A stretch of DNA of 64,000 nucleotides from Candidatus Poribacteria bacterium (GCA_963663765.2 CAXXUA010000005.1:960001-1024000), one strand, 5' to 3'; counted from the stretch's first letter, positions 42,194 to 51,417 are shown. Translations and numbers: made by a program. Notes: a model not told the origin generated them from the letters alone.

Positions 42194-43012
42194 TTACCTA
42201 TCTTCTGAAGACTGACGCATCCGCTTTGCAGAAAGGTATTGTTCTTCCAAGTGTGGTATACCCCCAGCTTTTTCAAGAAACGTATCTAAATAACGATTCA
42301 TCATGAGATGATCACCGTGATCTTGGTATGCAAGTGCGAGACGATAGTAAGCCTCTAATTCAGCAGCATCCAGAGATACACCTTTTTCATACGCTTGAAT
42401 AGCACTGAGTAATTCACCAGTTTCTTGGTAAGCAAGACCGAGGTTAAAGTAGACCGTAGCATCACCACCATCTATCTCTATACCTGCTTTATAATACTGT
42501 ATGGCTTCAGCATAAGATTCTTTATTTAGATACGCATCAGCGAGGTTGTAGTAGGTATCTACAAATGTTGGGTCAGATGTGAGCGCGTTTTGATATGCCT
42601 CAAGTGCTTCTTCAAATCTGTCGGACATGTCGTAAGCATAACCGAGATTGTTATAGAACGCAGGATTTTCCGGTTCAATTTCAAGTGCAGCTCTAAACAT
42701 CTCTATCGCAAGGAGAAACAAACGAAGATTGAGATAAACTAAACCCAAGTTGTTATAAGCGTGCTGATACTTTTCGTCAAGAGACAGTGCCGTTTGAAAA
42801 GAAGCTATTGCCTTGTCGTGTTCACCTAACTGATGATAAATTTTTCCTAACTCCACATGTCCTGCTGGATCAATTGGGTTGAGTGCTTGACCCATTTCAA
42901 GTTTCATAGCCTGGCGCTTGAGTTCACTTTGTTGCTGTTGTGCTTCATCAGGAGTGGAACAGCCGTATAATAAACAAGTTATGAAGATCAGCAAAATGAC
43001 CCGTTGTCCCAT
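42194..43012 (-). CDS. TPR-repeat lipoprotein
   Basis: YGC lipobox; AYNNLG / YNNLG / YFNLG TPR repeats. Confidence 0.88.
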   Translation of the reverse strand: MGQRVILLIFITCLLYGCSTPDEAQQQQSELKRQAMKLEMGQALNPIDPAGHVELGKIYHQLGEHDKAIASFQTALSLDEKYQHAYNNLGLVYLNLRLFLLAIEMFRAALEIEPENPAFYNNLGYAYDMSDRFEEALEAYQNALTSDPTFVDTYYNLADAYLNKESYAEAIQYYKAGIEIDGGDATVYFNLGLAYQETGELLSAIQAYEKGVSLDAAELEAYYRLALAYQDHGDHLMMNRYLDTFLEKAGGIPHLEEQYLSAKRMRQSSEDR

Positions 43013-43057
43013 CTTGAAGACTTCTAATCTTTTTTCTAAAATAATTGGGGAATATTG

Positions 43058-43894
43058 ATGATTATTGACACACATACGCATTTTTATGACCCGACGCGCC
43101 CAGAAGGTGTGCCGTGGCCAAACCCTAAAGATGAACTGCTTTACCGCAAAGTAATGCCAGACGACTATAAGAAACTTGCTGTGCCTGAAGGCGTAACTGG
43201 AACCGTAGTCGTTGAGGCAAGCAAATGGGTTGATGATAACCAGTGGATTCTTGACCTTGCTGCAAATGAACCGTTTATTGTCGGATTTGTAGGCAACTTA
43301 GCACCTAACGATGAAGATTTTGAGAAAAACCTAAAACGTTTTTCCGCTAATCCGCTTTTCCGCGGTATCCGTCTCGGTGGTGGACATCTTCAGCAAATTG
43401 GAGATGCTACCTTCATCAAAAACATTGAGAAGTTAGCAGCAAATGAACTAACTTTAGACCTACTCATCAATCCAGAAGCACTGAAACATTTGCCTGCTTT
43501 AGTTGAACACACACCGACGATGCGTGTTGTGATAAACCACGTCGCAGGTGTTCGCGTTGATGGCAATCCGCCTGATGAGACATGGGTTTCACGGATACAA
43601 GAAGCTGCACGTTATCCGAATGTCTATTGCAAGGTATCGGGGTTGGTAGAACACACTGGACAAAAACCTGCACCTGAAGACCTTGCCTACTACACGCCAA
43701 CTATAGATGTTTTATGGAAAGCGTTTGGTGAAGATAGACTTATCTACGGAAGCAACTGGCCCGTATCGGAACGTTTCGCTCAATATAAGGTCGTACAAAA
43801 CATTGTGAACGACTACTTCAGTGCAAAAGGTAATGAAGCTAAGGCAAAGTTCTTCTCAAAAAACGCAATAGCAGCGTATCAGTTATCGGTTTAA
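43058..43894 (+). CDS. Amidohydrolase_2 family (sugar lactonase-like)
   Basis: IDTHTH, INHVA, YCKVSG, YGSNWP. Confidence 0.88.
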   Translation: MIIDTHTHFYDPTRPEGVPWPNPKDELLYRKVMPDDYKKLAVPEGVTGTVVVEASKWVDDNQWILDLAANEPFIVGFVGNLAPNDEDFEKNLKRFSANPLFRGIRLGGGHLQQIGDATFIKNIEKLAANELTLDLLINPEALKHLPALVEHTPTMRVVINHVAGVRVDGNPPDETWVSRIQEAARYPNVYCKVSGLVEHTGQKPAPEDLAYYTPTIDVLWKAFGEDRLIYGSNWPVSERFAQYKVVQNIVNDYFSAKGNEAKAKFFSKNAIAAYQLSV

Positions 43895-44460
43895 GCCACC
43901 CATCGTATAAACTCACCTGCAGATTTACGTTTCGGTTCTTTTACTTCTGCGGGATAACCTGTATAGAAAAAACCGATGATGTATTCCTGTGATGAATCTA
44001 TACCCAGCAACTTATAAGTCGGTTCTTCCATTGTGATTCTGCCGGTACTCCACTGCATACCGACTCCTGCATCCCATGCAGCGAGTTGAATGTTCTGCAT
44101 AGCGCAACATGTTGCTGCGTAATCTTCACGTTGCCGTTGTTCATCCCCGTCTTGGACACAGGACACAGCGATAATTGTTGGCTTAGACATGAACTTTTCG
44201 TAAGCCAGTTCACCGATTTTAGCAAGATTCACTGCATCCACGTGATCGGGTGTATCCTCCATCTTGATTTCTCGGTAACGTTGTGCGAGTATCCGTTTTG
44301 TCTTTTCACCCATAACGGTAAATCGCCACGGTTCTGTTACATGATGGTTCGGTGCCCATATCCCGTAACTGAACACCTGTTCAATTACATCGTTTGGCAC
44401 AGATTCCTGTTTGAATTTGAAAACGGAACGTCTTGAAAGTATTGCATCTTTTACGTCCAT
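43891..44460 (-). CDS. Nitroreductase family protein (YdjA-like)
   Basis: SRRSV, WAPNHH..EPWRF, QNIQLAA, WSTG. Confidence 0.9.
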   Translation of the reverse strand: MDVKDAILSRRSVFKFKQESVPNDVIEQVFSYGIWAPNHHVTEPWRFTVMGEKTKRILAQRYREIKMEDTPDHVDAVNLAKIGELAYEKFMSKPTIIAVSCVQDGDEQRQREDYAATCCAMQNIQLAAWDAGVGMQWSTGRITMEEPTYKLLGIDSSQEYIIGFFYTGYPAEVKEPKRKSAGEFIRWVA

Positions 44461-44526
44461 AAATCCTCCTTTTGAATTATAGTTTATTAGTTGGTTGATT
44501 GCAAGCGTTGAATCCATCAATTTGCT

Positions 44527-45960
44527 CTATCCTAATGCAGCTTTAAGGCGTTCTACCGCTTCAATTGTATCCTCAATTTCTTTCTTTGGTATGTTAGCAA
44601 TAGTAGCATGGCTAAGCGGGTTTAGAATACGACTCCGATACAATTCAATATCATTGATAAGATCCTTGTCTAACAAGGCAGGATCCTCTTTCTCAGTCCT
44701 TCTTTTATTTTCAATCTTTATTGCATCCCAAAAATCTTGCGTGTCTTGTTTGTTCGGTTCTCGGCGATATCTAACAGGGATATGCTTATCCTCACAAAAA
44801 TTCTTTATTATCACCTCAAACGCTGTGCGTAGATAAACCGCACATGCTTTATAATCGTTTGCTTCAAAATAATCCCTTGCATTGTCAAGGTATGCCTTAT
44901 CCTCCACATAGACAGGAATTTCATATTCATCGGTCTGCCGAAAATAGAACTCAACGGCTTTCCATTTCCCACCGTGGGATGTCCGTTGTTTAACAATTTC
45001 GTACCACGATTTATCATAAGTTGTCAGAAATATTTGATAATCTGCAAAATACGCTTCTAAAATATCAAGAATTGGGAGACGATTTGACATGTCTAAACCG
45101 ATTAGTACGTCATCTAATGCTAAAATCTTTAACTCGCTTTCAGGCTGGATTAAGATTGATGAAAAGTAGATAGCAATAGCAATCGCTGACAACTTTGCTT
45201 CGTTTAGAAAACGGTGATGAGTCGGAATGTCCCTGTCAAAGAACTCAACATTTAAGGAAATTTCCTGATTATCAAGAGTCTTTTCGTCTCGGTTGTATGT
45301 TATTCCTTGAAAATCTAAGTTGAGCGTAACGTTATATCCAAATTTTTGGAGAATTTCGGATGTTTTCGCTTGCAGTATTTCCAATCTACGTTTTAATTCG
45401 CTGTTGAAGGTTTCTATTTCTGTTTCCAATTCTGCGATTTTCGTTTTAGCGTTTCGGCGGGGACACGGCTTCTGTTGGACGCTTTCCCATTCTTCACCAA
45501 GCGTTCTATTTGTTACAGGATTGACGGTGTTGACCAAAAGATTATCCACTAACAATTTGAAGACATTCACGTTTTCTTCTTCACGATGGACGTAGTGTGT
45601 TTCCAGCAAATCCTTATAGTCAAGGAAACCTTTTGCCTTTGATGCTTCAATAATTAGTGGATCATTCGTTTCTCTAACGTTTTGGGACCATTCATAGACG
45701 CGCTCATTTGTTCCTGGGTTTGCACGGAGATGTAATTTGATGTGTCCATCATCGTTTGCAATAAAGATATTCTGATGCTCTTTGAATTGGTGAGATCCTT
45801 CACTGGATTCCAGAAAAAACTTTAATGCCTGATACAACGAAGTTTTTCCGCTGCCGTTTTCACCGTAAACAAGTAGATTTTTCCCCGCCTTATGCAGATC
45901 AATTTGATAGGAACTTGGAAAAGCCCTAAAATTTCTAATCTCAATTTTGGTAATTCTCAT
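44527..45960 (-). CDS. ABC/SMC-like ATPase with C-terminal HEPN-like domain (RloC/PrrC-like)
   Basis: GENGSGKT Walker A, coiled coil, LNEAK signature, ALDD Walker B, TTYD H-loop variant; C-terminal helical 'YLRTAFE...RSRILNPLSH'. Confidence 0.75.
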   Translation of the reverse strand: MRITKIEIRNFRAFPSSYQIDLHKAGKNLLVYGENGSGKTSLYQALKFFLESSEGSHQFKEHQNIFIANDDGHIKLHLRANPGTNERVYEWSQNVRETNDPLIIEASKAKGFLDYKDLLETHYVHREEENVNVFKLLVDNLLVNTVNPVTNRTLGEEWESVQQKPCPRRNAKTKIAELETEIETFNSELKRRLEILQAKTSEILQKFGYNVTLNLDFQGITYNRDEKTLDNQEISLNVEFFDRDIPTHHRFLNEAKLSAIAIAIYFSSILIQPESELKILALDDVLIGLDMSNRLPILDILEAYFADYQIFLTTYDKSWYEIVKQRTSHGGKWKAVEFYFRQTDEYEIPVYVEDKAYLDNARDYFEANDYKACAVYLRTAFEVIIKNFCEDKHIPVRYRREPNKQDTQDFWDAIKIENKRRTEKEDPALLDKDLINDIELYRSRILNPLSHATIANIPKKEIEDTIEAVERLKAALG

Positions 45961-48590
45961 GCCTTACCCTCAATGATGCGAATAGGTTTAACACTGTCTA
46001 AAAAGAAAAGATTCCTTGCAACTGGATGATGCTTATCACATAATCGCTCAAAGATGTCCCGGAACGAAGACATTTTATCACCTTGAATCTTTTCAAGTTG
46101 CGGTAATTGCTCGTCGAATAACGGTTGGAAAAAGTATTTGTCACCCCGATGGAGTTCATCAGGTAAATAGAGTTCATAGACTAACCCGTTAAGGATATTT
46201 CCGAAATATCCTACCATCACGCGATCGCTGGCATAAGCTAAATCCTTACTGTTTACCGTTGGTTGTTTCTTGAGATAGAGAATATATTCAACGATTTTGT
46301 GAATAAGTGCCTGCTGTTCTGGTTCTATATCAGGGATCGGAATTTGTGAGACATATCGAGACGTAAATTTTAAAAACGGTCCCCGAATCTGTGGGGCAGT
46401 CCGCGCATAAAACCATGAAACTGCTCTGGTATTCAGCACACCGAGTAACCATAGTTCCTTAGTAGGTAGCAGAGAAGCGGGCAGTGCAGCATAGTAACCT
46501 TCATCGTCAAAAGCGAAAGCTGTTTCACTTGCCATCTCTGGATATATACACTTTGGATGCTCAAATCGATCCGTGTCTTTTGAGGCAACTTGGAGTTCAT
46601 ACCATTCCTGCTTTCCTGAACGTTTTTTCAAGGCATTGTTATATCTTTCCAAATGTTTTTTAATTGCGGGATAAGCGTCAATATCTATCCCGTGGTGAGT
46701 AAAGATCAACCATTTGTCTTTCGATTTCACTTGCCAACGTTGAATATCGTTTGTCATCAGAAAAGGTTTTAAAATCTGTGCTGATGATGGGTGTTCGGCA
46801 ATGAGTGCATCCCGCGTCTCACGTTCCACGATAAACGCTTCGTTATATCCTGTGATGATTCCACTCGACGGGTGATCTTGAAGATATTCTTGCAACGGTT
46901 TGCCAACATTTCGGAATTTCTCAAGTAGTCCCAACACTGCAGCGGATTCTTGGGTTTTCCCATCATGCGTCACAATCTTTTGCGTCGTGGTAAATGGGTT
47001 TACTGAGTATTGCTTCAACATGTCAACGATGTCTTTCGGCACTTTAACGTCATTTCTCCGCTCAAATGTAAAAATATTTTTATATAAGTTGTGAAACGCG
47101 ACAATGATATCAATTCCTTTGTTTTTGGCAGTGGTCAGATCGGTTTTGGCTCTATCCCATTCTCTCAGATTTAACTGTGCTAACCCTCGATGGCAATAAG
47201 ATATAGCATCATCAGGATCCAGTTTTAGGGACATATCATAATTTGCAATGGCTTTCTCAAATTCACCTGTGAGGAGGTAAACATTACCGAGATTATAATA
47301 GGCTCCTGCATGGTATTGATTTATATTTATTGCATTGGTCAAGCTATTGATTCCCTCATCAAACTTGTCTCTCTTGCCATAAGCAACTCCGCGATTAACA
47401 TAGGCATCAACAAAATCTGATTTGAGTGCTATCGCAGTGTTAAAGTCAGCAATAGCCTTGTCAAAATCGCCTTTGTCATCATAGACATTGCCCCGATTAT
47501 TATACGCTGCGGCAAACTCTGGTTGTAACTCTATTGCAGTATTAAAATCATTAATCCCTTTGTCATCCTTTCCGCTACGGACAAAAGCAAGACCCCGATT
47601 ATTATACGCTTCAGCGAATTCTGGTTGTAACTCTATCGCTATGTTAAAGTCATTAATAGCTTTTTCAATTTCACCTTGGTGTAAATAAGCTTCACCACGG
47701 TTTACATAGGCATTGGCATAATCTGGGTGCAGTTCTATTGCCTTATTAAAGTCGTCAATCCCTTTTTTGGTTTCGCTTATGACTACGTAAGTATTGCCAC
47801 GATTGTTATAAATTGCAGCCTGTTGCAAATCGAGGACTAAGGCATTAGTATAATGCGTAATTGCTTTTCTATACGCCTTCTGTTTTTCTTCTGGGATCTT
47901 TGCTTCATCTCCCTTATCTTTCTCAGAGCGTCCATTGTAAAATTCTCTATATGCCATCCAATACGCATTCTGGCTACTAATAAATCCCTGAATATCATTA
48001 TAGATAGTTTTGGGAGATATTTCGCGATCGAGTCGGCCTTGCAAGTGCTCTAATATAAGTAATTTGAGATCCTTCGGAATATTGATTATATCTTCATTAT
48101 CTGGATCAATGAAACCATCAGGCGGTTGAATGAATACGCTATCCTGGTCAGCAGCACGCTTCACTGAACCCCGTGGATATTTGAGCATCTTTTTCACTGC
48201 TTCTGTCTTTTGTAAGATAATAACTCGGCCAGACTTGTCCGGATGACCGTAGCATGCAAAAAAAAGAGCAACCTTATCGTCGGTAGTAAAATCTATCAGG
48301 TTTGTTTTACCACCATAATGTTGGAGTGCGGTGAGGATTTCAAATTTTTCCTTTTCGTCTATGTATTCTTTCGCAGCATCCACAATTTCGGTCTGAACAT
48401 CCGCTATATCGGAATACTTCAACTTGACCGCCTTAAGTTCACGATAGAGACTTGACGAGACTTTCTTATGACATTTAGCTTCACCACGGAAAATGTAGTC
48501 ACCATCTGTGGTCTTCTTCTCTATCTCATCAATGATTTCATCAACTGTTCTTAGCTTGCTTTTGGATTCAGATCGGTTTTTCGTACCCAT
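45957..48590 (-). CDS. FRG domain + TPR repeats + TaqI_C/Eco57I-like target-recognition domain fusion
   Basis: YIFRGE, QHYGGKTNLIDFT, ALFFAC; about 7 AY.NRG TPRs; GIITGYNEAF...WYELQ...PKCIYP...LLGVLNT...QIPIP. Confidence 0.8.
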   Translation of the reverse strand: MGTKNRSESKSKLRTVDEIIDEIEKKTTDGDYIFRGEAKCHKKVSSSLYRELKAVKLKYSDIADVQTEIVDAAKEYIDEKEKFEILTALQHYGGKTNLIDFTTDDKVALFFACYGHPDKSGRVIILQKTEAVKKMLKYPRGSVKRAADQDSVFIQPPDGFIDPDNEDIINIPKDLKLLILEHLQGRLDREISPKTIYNDIQGFISSQNAYWMAYREFYNGRSEKDKGDEAKIPEEKQKAYRKAITHYTNALVLDLQQAAIYNNRGNTYVVISETKKGIDDFNKAIELHPDYANAYVNRGEAYLHQGEIEKAINDFNIAIELQPEFAEAYNNRGLAFVRSGKDDKGINDFNTAIELQPEFAAAYNNRGNVYDDKGDFDKAIADFNTAIALKSDFVDAYVNRGVAYGKRDKFDEGINSLTNAININQYHAGAYYNLGNVYLLTGEFEKAIANYDMSLKLDPDDAISYCHRGLAQLNLREWDRAKTDLTTAKNKGIDIIVAFHNLYKNIFTFERRNDVKVPKDIVDMLKQYSVNPFTTTQKIVTHDGKTQESAAVLGLLEKFRNVGKPLQEYLQDHPSSGIITGYNEAFIVERETRDALIAEHPSSAQILKPFLMTNDIQRWQVKSKDKWLIFTHHGIDIDAYPAIKKHLERYNNALKKRSGKQEWYELQVASKDTDRFEHPKCIYPEMASETAFAFDDEGYYAALPASLLPTKELWLLGVLNTRAVSWFYARTAPQIRGPFLKFTSRYVSQIPIPDIEPEQQALIHKIVEYILYLKKQPTVNSKDLAYASDRVMVGYFGNILNGLVYELYLPDELHRGDKYFFQPLFDEQLPQLEKIQGDKMSSFRDIFERLCDKHHPVARNLFFLDSVKPIRIIEGKA

Positions 48591-48645
48591 TAGTTTTCCT
48601 CCAAAGGACAAAACTCCTCCCATACAAACAGAAGCAATGTTCTTG

Positions 48646-51417
48646 TTACTCCTGATATTCTATTTGAAGTATTTGCCGAACAGAACTTGTAAATTCACCA
48701 TTCATAACAAGTTTGACGTGGGCTGGTTTAATACAGTCTCCATTTTCATCAAAATAGGTTCGCCCTGTAATACCGTTATAGCCTTTCTCATGTGTATCCA
48801 ACGATGCCAAATAATCGCGGATGAATTTTCGATTTTCGGTAAGGGAAGCATCATGACTATAAGTTTGTTCAATCGCTTCGGCAATTATACCTATTGCATC
48901 ATAAGTTAATGCTGCCCATGTATTAGGGACAACACCGTACTCTGCACTAATTGCCTGAGCGAGCTGCGCTGCGTCTTCACCGGCTGCACCAAATGTAAAA
49001 GGAGTTGTCACATAAGTTCCCTCTGCGGAGTCACCAGCGATTGCGATAAAATCTGGTGAATCCACACCATCGCTACCAAAAAACGGTGCTGTGATGCCGA
49101 TTCCGCGCGCTTGTTTGACAATTAGTCCTGCTTGACTATAAAGACCAAAAATACAGATCATATCTGGATCTTTCAATTTGATCCGATCAAGCTGCGGTCT
49201 AAAATCCGTTCTATTCCGAGTGTACGATTCTTCAGCAACAATGTTGAGATTACTCTCCATAGCGGCTCTGGTGAAACTGTTCCGCACCTCACGTCCATAA
49301 CCATCTACATCAAACAAAACAGCAACTGATTGAAACTCTGTCAAGGCGTTTTGAATATATTTGGCGATGAATTGTCCTTGAAAATTGTCACTGTATATAT
49401 TCCGAAACATCCAGTCGCTTCCTTCAACAACAGCCTTATTAGTTGAACCCGGAGACAGTGCCACAAGACCAACACGTTGGTAGATAGGTTTACCAGCTAA
49501 AGAACATGAACTGTTGAAATGCCCGACAACAGCGAGGATGTTTCTATCATTAGCAAAGCGAGTAGCTACGAGTCCTGCCTGCCTTCCCTTACCAGCATCA
49601 TCTCCAAAAACAAGGGTTAACTTCATGCCGTTGATGCCCCCGGCTGCATTAATTTCTTTTACTTTGAACTCAGCACCAAGTCTAATCATCTTTCCGAATG
49701 CCGCGGCACTTCCTGTAAAAGGACCTGTCACAGCAACCTTTAATTCCTTCTCTCCGTTTTGTTCATTTCTTAGGGTTTGTTCTGATTTGGAAGTTAACAA
49801 TTTAAGATTTAATTTGGAAACTATAGCACCAAATTCCGACTCCCACGCATCCCGTTTAACACTTCCATTCTCAACACCAAGCACCAACAACCCCGGATTC
49901 TGCAGTGTGCTATTCTCACGAATCTTTTTCAGAAAATCATCAACTTCTAAGCCCACCTCTGCCGCGGCATGTGCTGCATCAAGCGGTCCTTCAAACTGCT
50001 TCACGAGCTGCTGTATCGGTTCACTCCCACCGAAGACACCGCCAGCCGCTGCAATTGCCTTCCGATAACGAGCAATGTCCTCACGGACAAGACGATCCAT
50101 CGTTGACTTTTCGGTATAGAGACGCAACGCCTGTGCTTTGTCATAAAGCGGGTTCGGATTCTGTTCAATCACCGAACGCACCTGATCGTCAAACGTTTTC
50201 ATTCCTTCTGTATGGCAGCCCATGCACGATAATCCATTACGGACAACAGGGTCTCTCGCCCCAGCGTTTGAGACAATGTTGATCGGAGCTTCGTCAAGTC
50301 GTTCACCTGTTGCAGTAGACAGATAGTATGCCTGCAATCCGTTAGGCAGGTTGAAGATAATCTCACCGCCATCATGCGTAAAATCAAGCGGATGTGTAAA
50401 GATATTCTGCCTGCCAACATTCCCTGCAAAGTCGTAGGATTTCCAATATGCACCATACCGCGATTTGTGACGTTCCACAATGCGATTGTTGACTGACACA
50501 CCAGATTCACTAAAACCTGCACGCCAGACGCGAACACCCGGTGCATTCTTAAGGTTTTCGGAGACGTTTACCTCAAGTTGTGTTTCTAATTCTTTAGCTG
50601 TTTTCGGCAGGTCAAGGATATCGTGATAAAGGGGTGGTAGTGAAGCAGTAGCGATGAACCAGTCTGCACGGATAAACGGCAAATCGCAGTCTGTTTTTTC
50701 ACATAACGTTGTGTATGTTGCAGACTTTAACTGAACACCGTAGGGATATGCCTGCTCAATTTTATACCATTTGTCAGTTTTGATGTCCCATTCATAGTTG
50801 CGAAGGTCTATGTAGAAGATGGTTTCTTCTTTATCAATTGGTTTCGGCTTGATTACCTCAGCACCCCAAGAGAGGCTATTGATGAGTTTTGATAAAGCGA
50901 TCCGATAGGCGCGGAGGTTAGCATCTGTTACCCCTGCATTGTAAAGATGTGTGAGTGTGAAATAACGTGCAAAGGAACGGTCAAATTCAGTGAGCGACAT
51001 CAAATGGGTTTGAATGGCTTTAAGCATTAACTCAGTTGTAATGAATTTGCGTTTAGGTTTGGGAATAGCATCCCAGTCTGGCGAGCCTGCTTCAATCCAG
51101 CGGCGAATAGAGGCGATTTCATCAGTGTCCAGCGGTTCTTGTCCTAACGGCATTTGCGAACCATTATCGGTATCACCAAGTAAGCGTAGATAGAATTCGG
51201 AGTCATCGGGTTGGCGTGGAATTACTGATTTGTCTTTGATTAAATTTGAATGCTTTATTGTAAGGACATCTGCATAAGATCCAAATTCCCCATGGCAATC
51301 AATGCAATGCTGTTCAAAGATTGCATGAGCTTGTTGTGCAAGGTTTTCTTGTGCATGCACAATTTGATGGTGTAAAACAAGTATCAAAATGCACAAAATA
51401 ATATAGCAGTTTTTCAT
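48646..51417 (-). CDS. Secreted di-haem cytochrome c protein fused to a branched-chain amino acid-binding (LivK-like) domain
   Basis: Signal peptide; CIDCH...MPLG and CMGCH; C-terminal GPFTG...INAAGGING...GHFNSS...FRNI...YDA periplasmic binding protein type 1. Confidence 0.82.
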   Translation of the reverse strand: MKNCYIILCILILVLHHQIVHAQENLAQQAHAIFEQHCIDCHGEFGSYADVLTIKHSNLIKDKSVIPRQPDDSEFYLRLLGDTDNGSQMPLGQEPLDTDEIASIRRWIEAGSPDWDAIPKPKRKFITTELMLKAIQTHLMSLTEFDRSFARYFTLTHLYNAGVTDANLRAYRIALSKLINSLSWGAEVIKPKPIDKEETIFYIDLRNYEWDIKTDKWYKIEQAYPYGVQLKSATYTTLCEKTDCDLPFIRADWFIATASLPPLYHDILDLPKTAKELETQLEVNVSENLKNAPGVRVWRAGFSESGVSVNNRIVERHKSRYGAYWKSYDFAGNVGRQNIFTHPLDFTHDGGEIIFNLPNGLQAYYLSTATGERLDEAPINIVSNAGARDPVVRNGLSCMGCHTEGMKTFDDQVRSVIEQNPNPLYDKAQALRLYTEKSTMDRLVREDIARYRKAIAAAGGVFGGSEPIQQLVKQFEGPLDAAHAAAEVGLEVDDFLKKIRENSTLQNPGLLVLGVENGSVKRDAWESEFGAIVSKLNLKLLTSKSEQTLRNEQNGEKELKVAVTGPFTGSAAAFGKMIRLGAEFKVKEINAAGGINGMKLTLVFGDDAGKGRQAGLVATRFANDRNILAVVGHFNSSCSLAGKPIYQRVGLVALSPGSTNKAVVEGSDWMFRNIYSDNFQGQFIAKYIQNALTEFQSVAVLFDVDGYGREVRNSFTRAAMESNLNIVAEESYTRNRTDFRPQLDRIKLKDPDMICIFGLYSQAGLIVKQARGIGITAPFFGSDGVDSPDFIAIAGDSAEGTYVTTPFTFGAAGEDAAQLAQAISAEYGVVPNTWAALTYDAIGIIAEAIEQTYSHDASLTENRKFIRDYLASLDTHEKGYNGITGRTYFDENGDCIKPAHVKLVMNGEFTSSVRQILQIEYQE

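Follow-up and report, generated by a model that had tools for sequence, protein, structure and literature searches.

The 64,000-nucleotide (nt) stretch of Candidatus Poribacteria DNA analysed here as a whole (GCA_963663765.2, CAXXUA010000005.1:960001-1024000; the window) carries at positions 44527-48590 two overlapping genes. Gene A codes for a protein in which an FRG domain, an array of tetratricopeptide repeats (TPRs) and the target recognition domain (TRD) of a type IIG restriction enzyme are joined, and gene B codes for an ATP-binding cassette (ABC) ATPase with a helical C-terminal domain. The conclusion that the pair is a conserved and selected two-gene system is well supported. From the sequence comparisons it is plausible that it serves in defence, and the pair looks like an undescribed anti-phage system that is common in Poribacteria-type bacteria. 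We propose that it is a two-protein abortive-infection module which descended from a type IIG enzyme and the ABC ATPase translationally coupled to it, a reading to which we give a probability of roughly 45%. What we infer for this reading is that the two proteins bind to each other in the cell, that they have the enzymatic activities and the trigger assigned to them, and that they act in defence.

Architecture of the two genes

The calls of open reading frames (ORFs) in the 64-kb window placed four closely spaced genes at the locus, all on the minus strand, to which the coordinates of their features refer. Residues of protein A are counted from an upstream ATG at 48623, not from M12. The ORF of gene A has 888 codons (45957-48623) and its actual start is M12 at nt 48590, which gives a protein of 877 amino acids (aa; 45957..48590). 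The start was assigned to M12 on the basis of a GGAGGA ribosome-binding site, read directly from the sequence 7 nt 5′ of this ATG (48597..48602), of the conservation of M12 in at least 95% of the 66 FRG-type homologues and the window's own protein, and of a 100% identical database protein of 877 aa. An earlier sequence-only reading of the window had set the end of the locus at 48590, which is this actual start.

The N-terminal region of protein A (residues 12-246, 47886..48590) is a predicted ART-fold NADase effector. The Pfam FRG family (PF08867) matched residues 42-126 with 54.1 bits against a cut-off of 25, and 13 PADLOC models of PDC-S15 matched the same region (best E = 3e-20). In the set of FRG-type proteins named above, residues R46, G47 and E48 (the F-R-G motif), S57, R61, Q101, H102, G104-L109, D111-T113, R156 and Q160 are at least 95% conserved. 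In the passages of PMC9503650 that deal with FRG, the Aravind group proposed it as an NAD-consuming domain of ART fold, and our proposal that the FRG domain of protein A would be a NADase effector follows theirs. The TPR array (residues 247-506, 47106..47885) has eight repeats according to our own TPR profile, while Pfam found TPR_1 in six stretches and TPR_11 in seven; no tandem repeat was found in the array at the DNA level.

The array is followed by a linker and a type IIG/TaqI-like TRD (residues 507-792, 46248..47105). Here, Pfam TaqI_C matched residues 620-763 (48.7 bits, cut-off 26.5), and residues 546-792 correspond to positions 850-1117 of a 1148-position PADLOC model of a type IIG restriction enzyme-methyltransferase (E = 1e-26). 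The C-terminal profile of gene A also matched the TRD of M.BseCI (PDB 7qw5, residues 332-572) with E = 1e-16. The last part is a conserved helical tail (residues 793-888, 45960..46247), which is predicted from profile comparison and modelled contacts to dock on the ATPase. In gene A, no Pfam match was obtained to Eco57I, N6_Mtase or nuclease families, and no NPPY-type ([NDS]PP[YFWH]) or FxGxG motif was found. A loose PD..ExK regular expression gave a single match, which lies within the FRG region; the N-terminus is FRG and holds no nuclease domain. A complete type IIG restriction-modification (R-M) enzyme was considered for gene A and rejected, as the methylase and nuclease domains are lacking; the TaqI_C-type TRD of such an enzyme is present.

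Pfam, PADLOC and the motif scan thus bear out what the sequence-only reading had described, namely one ORF joining an FRG domain, about seven TPRs (we count eight) and a type IIG C-terminus without methyltransferase or nuclease. It had also reported two altered basic motifs. The altered forms are indeed present, SSGIITG at residues 586-592 and LMTNDI at residues 622-627, but the change tells little: among 22 family members only three have the first arginine and 12 have the second, and the solved methylase M.BseCI is without both arginines at the aligned places.

Gene B (44527..45960) starts in an ATGA sequence that also contains the stop codon of gene A (45957..45960), an overlap that had been seen before. 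Residues 1-355 (44896..45960) form an ABC head of the SMC/Rad50/RecF type with a short coiled-coil insert, for which SMC_N, AAA_15 and AAA_23 scored above the Pfam cut-offs. Residues 356-477 with the stop codon (44527..44895) form the C-terminal helical domain, and in the AlphaFold2 model of gene B (predicted local distance difference test, pLDDT, 76) residues 357-476 are a helical bundle. Conservation was assessed in 65 relatives from many phyla with 29-91% identity. The Walker A loop and the signature-like motif LNEAxxxA are invariant, as are D283, D284, G288, L289 and D290 of the Walker B/D-loop region. Of the C-terminal domain, all 65 relatives keep R378, E382, N447 and H451, and 58 of them keep R/K442.

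The layout of these residues is of the HEPN type, with R..E and E382-x3-K386 on the first helix and an R-x(3-4)-N-x3-H pattern on a later one. When the domain was aligned by hhalign with five true DUF4145 domains, R378/E382, R442, N447 and H451 stood opposite R37/E, R87, N91 and H95 of DUF4145. Close relatives of gene B matched DUF4145 at E <= 1 in 15 of 21 cases (best 0.0041). Among diverse relatives, 4 of 78 matched it at E <= 0.01 and 3 of 78 matched HEPN (PF05168), and these were the sole families not of NTPase type that were matched by more than one of the 78. In the relevant passages, Anantharaman et al. placed DUF4145 in the HEPN superfamily (PMC3710099), and in RAZR it is described as a working HEPN RNase in which R146 and H154 are needed (PMC13017515). 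Because the conserved residues are in register and DUF4145 is an HEPN RNase in these papers, the C-terminal domain of gene B is likely a DUF4145-type HEPN, with the odds clearly on that side.

Fold searches with the whole model of gene B returned only ABC/SMC heads; they barely probed the region beyond residue 380 and so neither support nor exclude an HEPN fold. In the ESM Atlas, residues 352-477 fell to unnamed clusters (0.93 and 0.90) and to another at 0.84 in which 10% of members carry AAA_13, which we take as a lead only. PADLOC, run on the C-terminal part alone, returned only RmrT (E = 0.0097) and mad3 (E = 0.0033). The HEPN-like domain family comprises 1077 representative clusters at E <= 0.001, of which 63 are at E <= 1e-30, and in some of its members, 600-700 aa long, the domain is present twice. 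Some ATPase relatives of 574-705 aa have the HEPN-like domain in tandem (L090, L109, L110, L113, L114, L116, L117, L122, P0139, P0144 and others), and such double copies would fit a composite active site made of two HEPN domains.

Conservation, pairing and descent from type IIG enzymes

The core of protein A is constant and its N-terminus is not. Among the 120 best database homologues, the window's own protein included, all 120 have the TRD and the same TPR-TRD core; therefore, the FRG-TPR-TRD architecture is not a product of chance. Their N-termini are FRG in 66, TIR in 33 and HNH-like in 10, and an N-terminal domain is absent in 11. The 20 loci that were fetched gave 21 partner genes for examination. 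Their proteins (569-1758 aa) consist of an N-terminal piece of up to about 470 aa, 3-33 TPRs and a TRD of about 345 aa with tail, and Pfam assigned to the N-termini TIR_2 in nine cases, a weak HNH_5 in four (E about 5e-5, below cut-off), FRG in two and nothing in six. Even at one site, beside the same nitroreductase gene, the window has FRG, genome G072 has no N-terminal domain, and G080 and G100 have HNH-like ones. Compared with locus L049, which is without FRG, the window has an ATPase head that is 94% identical and a TPR array that is 44% identical, which indicates that modules are exchanged between close relatives. The replacement of FRG by a TIR or HNH-like domain fits the role of effector that had been suggested for it.

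Locus L043 (G100:C1:3139000-3154000) has two partner genes around a single ATPase gene. The upstream one is of the HNH-like-TPR-TRD form (983 aa), and the downstream one (569 aa) is of the TPR-TRD form and lacks an N-terminal domain. Free-standing FRG-TPR genes of 574-718 aa occur at L033:8029-9753, L041:9301-11457 and L042:6848-8752, each flanked on one side by a TIR-TPR-TRD gene that is followed by the ATPase, and on the other by a TRD-only ORF or a type IIG enzyme; these four-gene clusters may work together. The window's genome (G000) has six FRG genes besides gene A, seven in total, mostly FRG-TPR without TRD, including those at C4:183136-184476, C4:893396-897747, C5:30346-31872, C5:1437233-1439459 and C6:438658-443500. 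Several further FRG genes stand in tandem clusters and some matches contain in-frame stops; the FRG-TPR family of the genome is expanded and partly decaying. With the free-standing genes and the six further FRG genes, donor material for the fusion is at hand.

The presence of the ATPase in genomes was scored at E <= 1e-10. It was found in 89 of 176 genomes of the phylum, often in several copies, and in 21 of the 39 other genomes of the genus. Many copies are fragmented or interrupted by stops; a patchy distribution with broken copies is typical of defence genes. The two genes travel together: in 92 of 98 long ATPase matches in the 176 genomes a TRD match lies directly upstream on the same strand, the gap between the genes is 0-9 nt in 88 of the 92 pairs, and the six unpaired matches are located at contig ends or are fragments. 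Homologue records with a named organism belong to Candidatus Poribacteria and, in two cases, to Latescibacterota.

The ATPase was also scanned for in one genome per species, and the best 80 of 270 relatives were examined. They come from Poribacteria and, according to the titles of their records, from cyanobacteria, Acidobacteriota, Bacteroidota, Planctomycetes, Desulfobacterales, Chlorobiaceae, and alpha- and betaproteobacteria. A TRD-bearing ORF is directly upstream of the ATPase in 56 of these loci, with TPRs in 21 and without them in 35; in nine loci the upstream gene is missing or hidden by a contig end, and in 15 it is an ORF of another kind. The long upstream proteins without TPRs were full Eco57I + TaqI_C enzymes in all ten cases tested. 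On four of the five viral contigs with a full-length ATPase match, the ATPase is likewise paired with a full type IIG enzyme. Two viral contigs have an ORF of 418 aa without Pfam match that overlaps the end of the ATPase gene (L138:4815-6071 and L139:6365-7621); it may be a third component in that lineage. At a Nostoc locus (L067:4912-5928) a recombinase of the phage integrase family stands directly upstream of a TRD-only ORF and the ATPase, which could be a specificity-shuffling arrangement.

The full enzymes and protein A share the TRD and the tail. Where the ATPase ORF has 440 aa or more (53 pairs), the TRD profile of the window ends no more than nine residues from the C-terminus of the partner in every case (53/53); in the most distant coupled partners the match is reduced to positions from about 143-219 to 381 of the profile. 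In full type IIG enzymes that are found close to a pair but are not coupled to an ATPase, the last 65 or so residues or more are lacking. As the tail is kept in coupled partners and absent from uncoupled enzymes, it is the element that travels with the ATPase. The best reading of protein A from these comparisons is a type IIG enzyme in which an effector-TPR part took the place of the nuclease-methylase body, and the replacement postulated in the sequence-only reading has gained support from the full enzymes and the matching tails.

The ATPase and residues 505-888 of protein A, each with an alignment of 65 rows, were modelled as a complex. The median score was 0.85, and the best of three controls scored 0.00. 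Of 80 solved complexes, 58 reach the score mark used for such models, and of 110 mismatched pairs, two do; these counts apply only approximately here because our own alignments were used. At least 87% of the contacts are common to the three runs, and the partner has a pLDDT of 82 or more. The confident contacts involve residues 793-809 and 862-887 of protein A, that is, the tail, and residues 101-109, 146-151, 177-194, 217-219 and 271-275 of the ATPase, a surface at the base of the coiled-coil insert and not on the C-terminal domain. The modelled contacts agree with what was concluded independently from the comparison of tails, and the model supports binding of the tail to the ATPase. The coupling of the two genes claimed earlier is thus backed by the conserved pairing as well as by the modelled interface.

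The pair is neither an artefact nor decaying. Both reading frames are intact. A 3694-nt contig of run X1 spans 44409-48102 and a 6291-nt contig of run X4, from a second study, spans 44117-49000, both with 0 differences; one of these identical runs may be the window's own source sample. A sponge-metagenome run of 2016 holds 39% of the sampled words of the stretch, and its diverged contig pieces lie on the locus, one of them crossing the TPR-TRD junction. Where dS could be computed, dN/dS (NG86 method) was 0.09-0.27 in the FRG, TPR, TRD and tail regions, the ATPase head and the C-terminal domain. Contig joints in runs X1, X4 and X5 (46275>46589 and 47623>47787) leave out 313 and 163 nt, and their shorter side matches over fewer than 30 letters. 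The contigs probably derive from TPR and TRD genes of paralogues or of other organisms, and the joints would then not represent variants of the locus. The sequence-only reading had itself named a fusion unique to this assembly, one unspanned by reads, and decay as reasons to abandon the idea, and homologues, contigs and dN/dS values speak against all three.

Proposed mechanism and alternative explanations

In the abortive-infection module that we propose, protein A would have kept the DNA-reading domain and the helical tail of its ancestor, with the nuclease-methylase body swapped for a TPR array and an exchangeable effector. The tail would anchor protein A at the base of the coiled coil of protein B. 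The TPR array, which is variable in length and exchanged between relatives, is proposed to sense a phage protein, and the TRD would hold the complex on DNA or act merely as an adaptor. An ATP-dependent change in protein B would then be the switch that frees both effectors, and loss of NAD+ through FRG together with RNA cleavage by the HEPN-like domain would stop the infected cell.

Several results weigh against this reading. The Walker B motif of gene B is DD and not DE, so that ATP hydrolysis may be slow. The gene B match to DUF4145 in Pfam is 14.9 bits against a cut-off of 23.1 (E = 0.028), the hhalign comparison with DUF4145 has a probability of only 30% at E = 5.5e-4, and the Arg-His spacing, Rx8H, is outside the canonical Rx4-6H. 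A PDB sequence search with the profile of the C-terminal domain returned nothing significant, the best match being a TPR-like helix with E = 0.07. As to the interface, an AlphaFold2 model of residues 505-888 of protein A alone (22-row alignment) reached a pLDDT of 46 and was unusable, and the high score of the complex may come partly from likeness to solved Rad50-Mre11 or SMC-kleisin contacts, which the predicted contact at the coiled-coil base resembles. The neighbours of the pair are housekeeping genes with no defence island, and its site is syntenic within the genus; housekeeping flanks and a stable site are mild arguments against a classical mobile defence island.

Two alternatives assign the sensing to the TRD. 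It is possible, but rather unlikely in our estimate, that the trigger is DNA: the TRD would read specific, perhaps unmethylated DNA, the ATPase would load or proofread it, and the FRG and HEPN effectors would replace cleavage. The TRD has a homologue that works in DNA recognition, the domain of M.BseCI, and it is under purifying selection (dN/dS 0.15-0.22), and the SMC/Rad50-like heads which protein B resembles act on DNA. A precedent, described in bioRxiv 10.64898/2026.09.23.753747, is MANTIS, with an ATPase as the loader of a PglX-like methylase onto its site. Enzymes encoded by the 13 above-cut-off Eco57I-domain matches in the window's genome could mark self DNA, and full type IIG enzymes are found just upstream in 4 of the 20 fetched loci. 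However, the only match to this TRD in that genome at E <= 1e-10 is gene A itself, with no close second copy, and the TRDs of fusion and neighbouring type IIG enzyme are only 26-41% identical, so no cognate methylase is evident; a TRD shared between the fusion and an adjacent full enzyme was rejected on the same values. In distant partners the TRD core has diverged and the tail region alone is kept, which suggests that the tail is the constrained part, and a DNA trigger would leave the variable TPR array without a role. The other alternative, which we regard as unlikely, is that the catalytically empty TRD is a guarded bait for anti-restriction proteins such as DNA mimics, whose attack would release the ATPase-HEPN and FRG effectors. 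Stp unleashes PrrC and Ocr triggers PARIS in a comparable way. TRD-only proteins stand between enzyme and ATPase at L114 and L105, and AriA is the best PADLOC match to the N-terminus of protein B, but this match is limited to residues 1-74, a generic P-loop region. The ancestral pairing with type IIG and other restriction genes parallels that of PrrC with EcoprrI as presented in passages of PMC3710099. The case is nevertheless one of analogy throughout, and TPR arrays of 3-33 repeats are left unexplained. A wider idea, doubtful though by no means far-fetched, is that the TRD, with the ABC ATPase as its loader and switch, recognises foreign DNA or anti-restriction proteins aimed at such domains, and that the complex fires interchangeable suicide effectors (FRG/TIR/HNH plus HEPN RNase) instead of cutting. 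If true, there would be a family of 'restriction without cleavage' systems, and a large class of type IIG enzymes across many phyla would work with a dedicated, so far undescribed ABC-HEPN partner.

Explanations outside phage defence, or outside a two-protein module, have lower standing. The pair could be a toxin-antitoxin or addiction-like selfish module, or protein A a TPR 'eukaryote-like' protein for dealings with a sponge host; we hold this to be quite unlikely. It would agree with the plentiful TPR genes (100 matches) and the seven FRG genes of the genome, with the housekeeping flanks and syntenic site, and with the partial presence of the locus in the 2016 sponge metagenome. However, reading of the protein sequence revealed no evident signal peptide or secretion signal, and the alternation of TIR, HNH and FRG, the descent from R-M enzymes, the viral contigs and the patchy loss point to conflict systems. 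That the TRD of protein A serves in trans as the specificity part of a methylase or type IIG enzyme encoded elsewhere, and that the ATPase is a cofactor of this R-M system, is very unlikely. TRD-only ORFs of 352-386 aa do precede the ATPase in some loci, and at L105 the gene before such an ORF is an Eco57I methylase without TRD, but the window has no adjacent R-M gene, and FRG/TIR/HNH domains and TPRs would be unexpected on a specificity subunit. A decaying remnant or an assembly chimera, which the many fragmented relatives might bring to mind, is highly improbable in view of the intact frames, the dN/dS of 0.09-0.27, the X1 and X4 contigs with 0 differences and the core common to all 120 homologues.

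Related systems and neighbouring genes

In the sequence-only reading gene B was taken for an ATPase-HEPN of the PrrC/RloC type. Membership of this family was rejected, as AAA_13 scored 21.9 bits against a cut-off of 36; among close relatives, 19 of 21 matched AAA_13 only at E <= 1 (best 1.5e-5). As PrrC-EcoprrI and RloC are described in passages of PMC3710099, protein B has in common with them a Rad50/SbcC-like ABC ATPase at the N-terminus, a helical C-terminal domain with a conserved Arg/His signature and a gene tied to a restriction enzyme, and it would fit the same logic of a suicide effector that is latent and acts as a second line. The same source, in which R-M-linked HEPN proteins were catalogued in 2013, also treats fusions of ABC and HEPN domains with linkage to R-M systems as a theme. 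Protein B differs in that its C-terminal domain is DUF4145-like with Rx8H / Nx3H spacing and not of the PrrC type, and in being coupled to a type IIG TRD instead of a type I HsdMSR complex. Moreover, in the lineage of the window the restriction enzyme itself has been replaced by the effector-TPR part. Gene B is an analogue of the PrrC/RloC family and not a member.

With type IIG enzymes of the Eco57I/MmeI class and with M.BseCI, protein A shares its homologous C-terminal 250 or so residues, and full enzymes with the same tail precede the same ATPase in other phyla. It differs from them by having no methylase, nuclease, NPPY or FxGxG motif, and from unpaired type IIG neighbours by an extra tail of about 95 residues. 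Avs and other NLR-like STAND sensors combine a swappable N-terminal effector (TIR, HNH and others) with a TPR array of variable length, as protein A does. In protein A, no NTPase family was matched in Pfam; it has no STAND NTPase. Here the NTPase is a protein of its own, of the ABC type, and protein A carries a restriction-enzyme TRD in addition. RAZR (PD-T7-4) resembles protein B in a divergent DUF4145 HEPN with wide Arg-His spacing, R146/H154 (passages of PMC13017515) corresponding to R442/H451; unlike the pair, it combines the HEPN with a zinc finger in one protein and lacks an ATPase, and the similarity of protein B is below the Pfam threshold. PDC-S15 matches only the N-terminal 140 or so residues of gene A, and its models of 254-487 positions have neither a TRD nor an ATPase partner. 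PARIS (AriA/AriB), Lamassu (LmuB) and MADS (MAD3) have an ABC head in common with protein B, for which AriA, LmuB and mad3 are the best PADLOC matches. AriA and LmuB match only its first 75-100 or so residues (AriA 1-74), and none of the three systems has its C-terminal domain or a TRD partner. Membership of MAD3, PtuA (of Septu) or AriA was rejected, since the NCBIfam scores of protein B (17.2 bits against a cut-off of 420 for MAD3, and 18.2 against 500 for PtuA) are far too low or the match is to the P-loop only.

In our literature search neither a TPR-TRD fusion nor a type IIG-ABC-HEPN pair was found described; the search covered neither subscription journals nor supplementary files, so an earlier mention in a supplementary table is possible. 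If the pair is a defence system, it would be a new architecture made from known parts, in which an R-M specificity domain is reused as an adaptor or sensor with an ABC-HEPN partner and the N-terminal NADase or nuclease effector is exchangeable. The system is abundant in Poribacteria (ATPase in 89/176 genomes), a phylum that is hard to study experimentally. The association of the ATPase with preceding full type IIG enzymes in cyanobacteria, Bacteroidota, Acidobacteriota, proteobacteria and others is apparently unreported, and it suggests that a partner with a second-line or regulatory role exists for many 'single-polypeptide' type IIG enzymes. For experiments, the predicted interface of tail and ATPase is a direct handle.

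The nitroreductase gene (43891-44520) begins 7 nt past the stop codon of the ATPase gene and is also found in genomes without the pair. Within the genus the pair is usually found next to the orthologous gene, by reading of coordinates in 13 of the 39 other genomes. The nitroreductase gene marks an insertion site that is stable, and it may be transcribed together with the pair. A scan for promoters and terminators gave 26 promoter-like sites against 19.8 +/- 4.4 expected and six terminator-like sites against 6.4, which is not above chance. On the other side, the gene at 48646-51417 codes for a 923-aa fusion of a cytochrome-c-like N-terminus (weak PSCyt1 and Cytochrome_CBB3 matches) with a periplasmic binding protein (Peripla_BP_6). 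In the other 39 genomes of the genus the Peripla_BP_6 part is found elsewhere as separate ORFs of about 390-500 aa, and therefore this fusion may be particular to the genome of the window. A 295-aa protein composed of TPRs only is encoded 1.4 kb downstream of the pair (42194-43081, minus strand).

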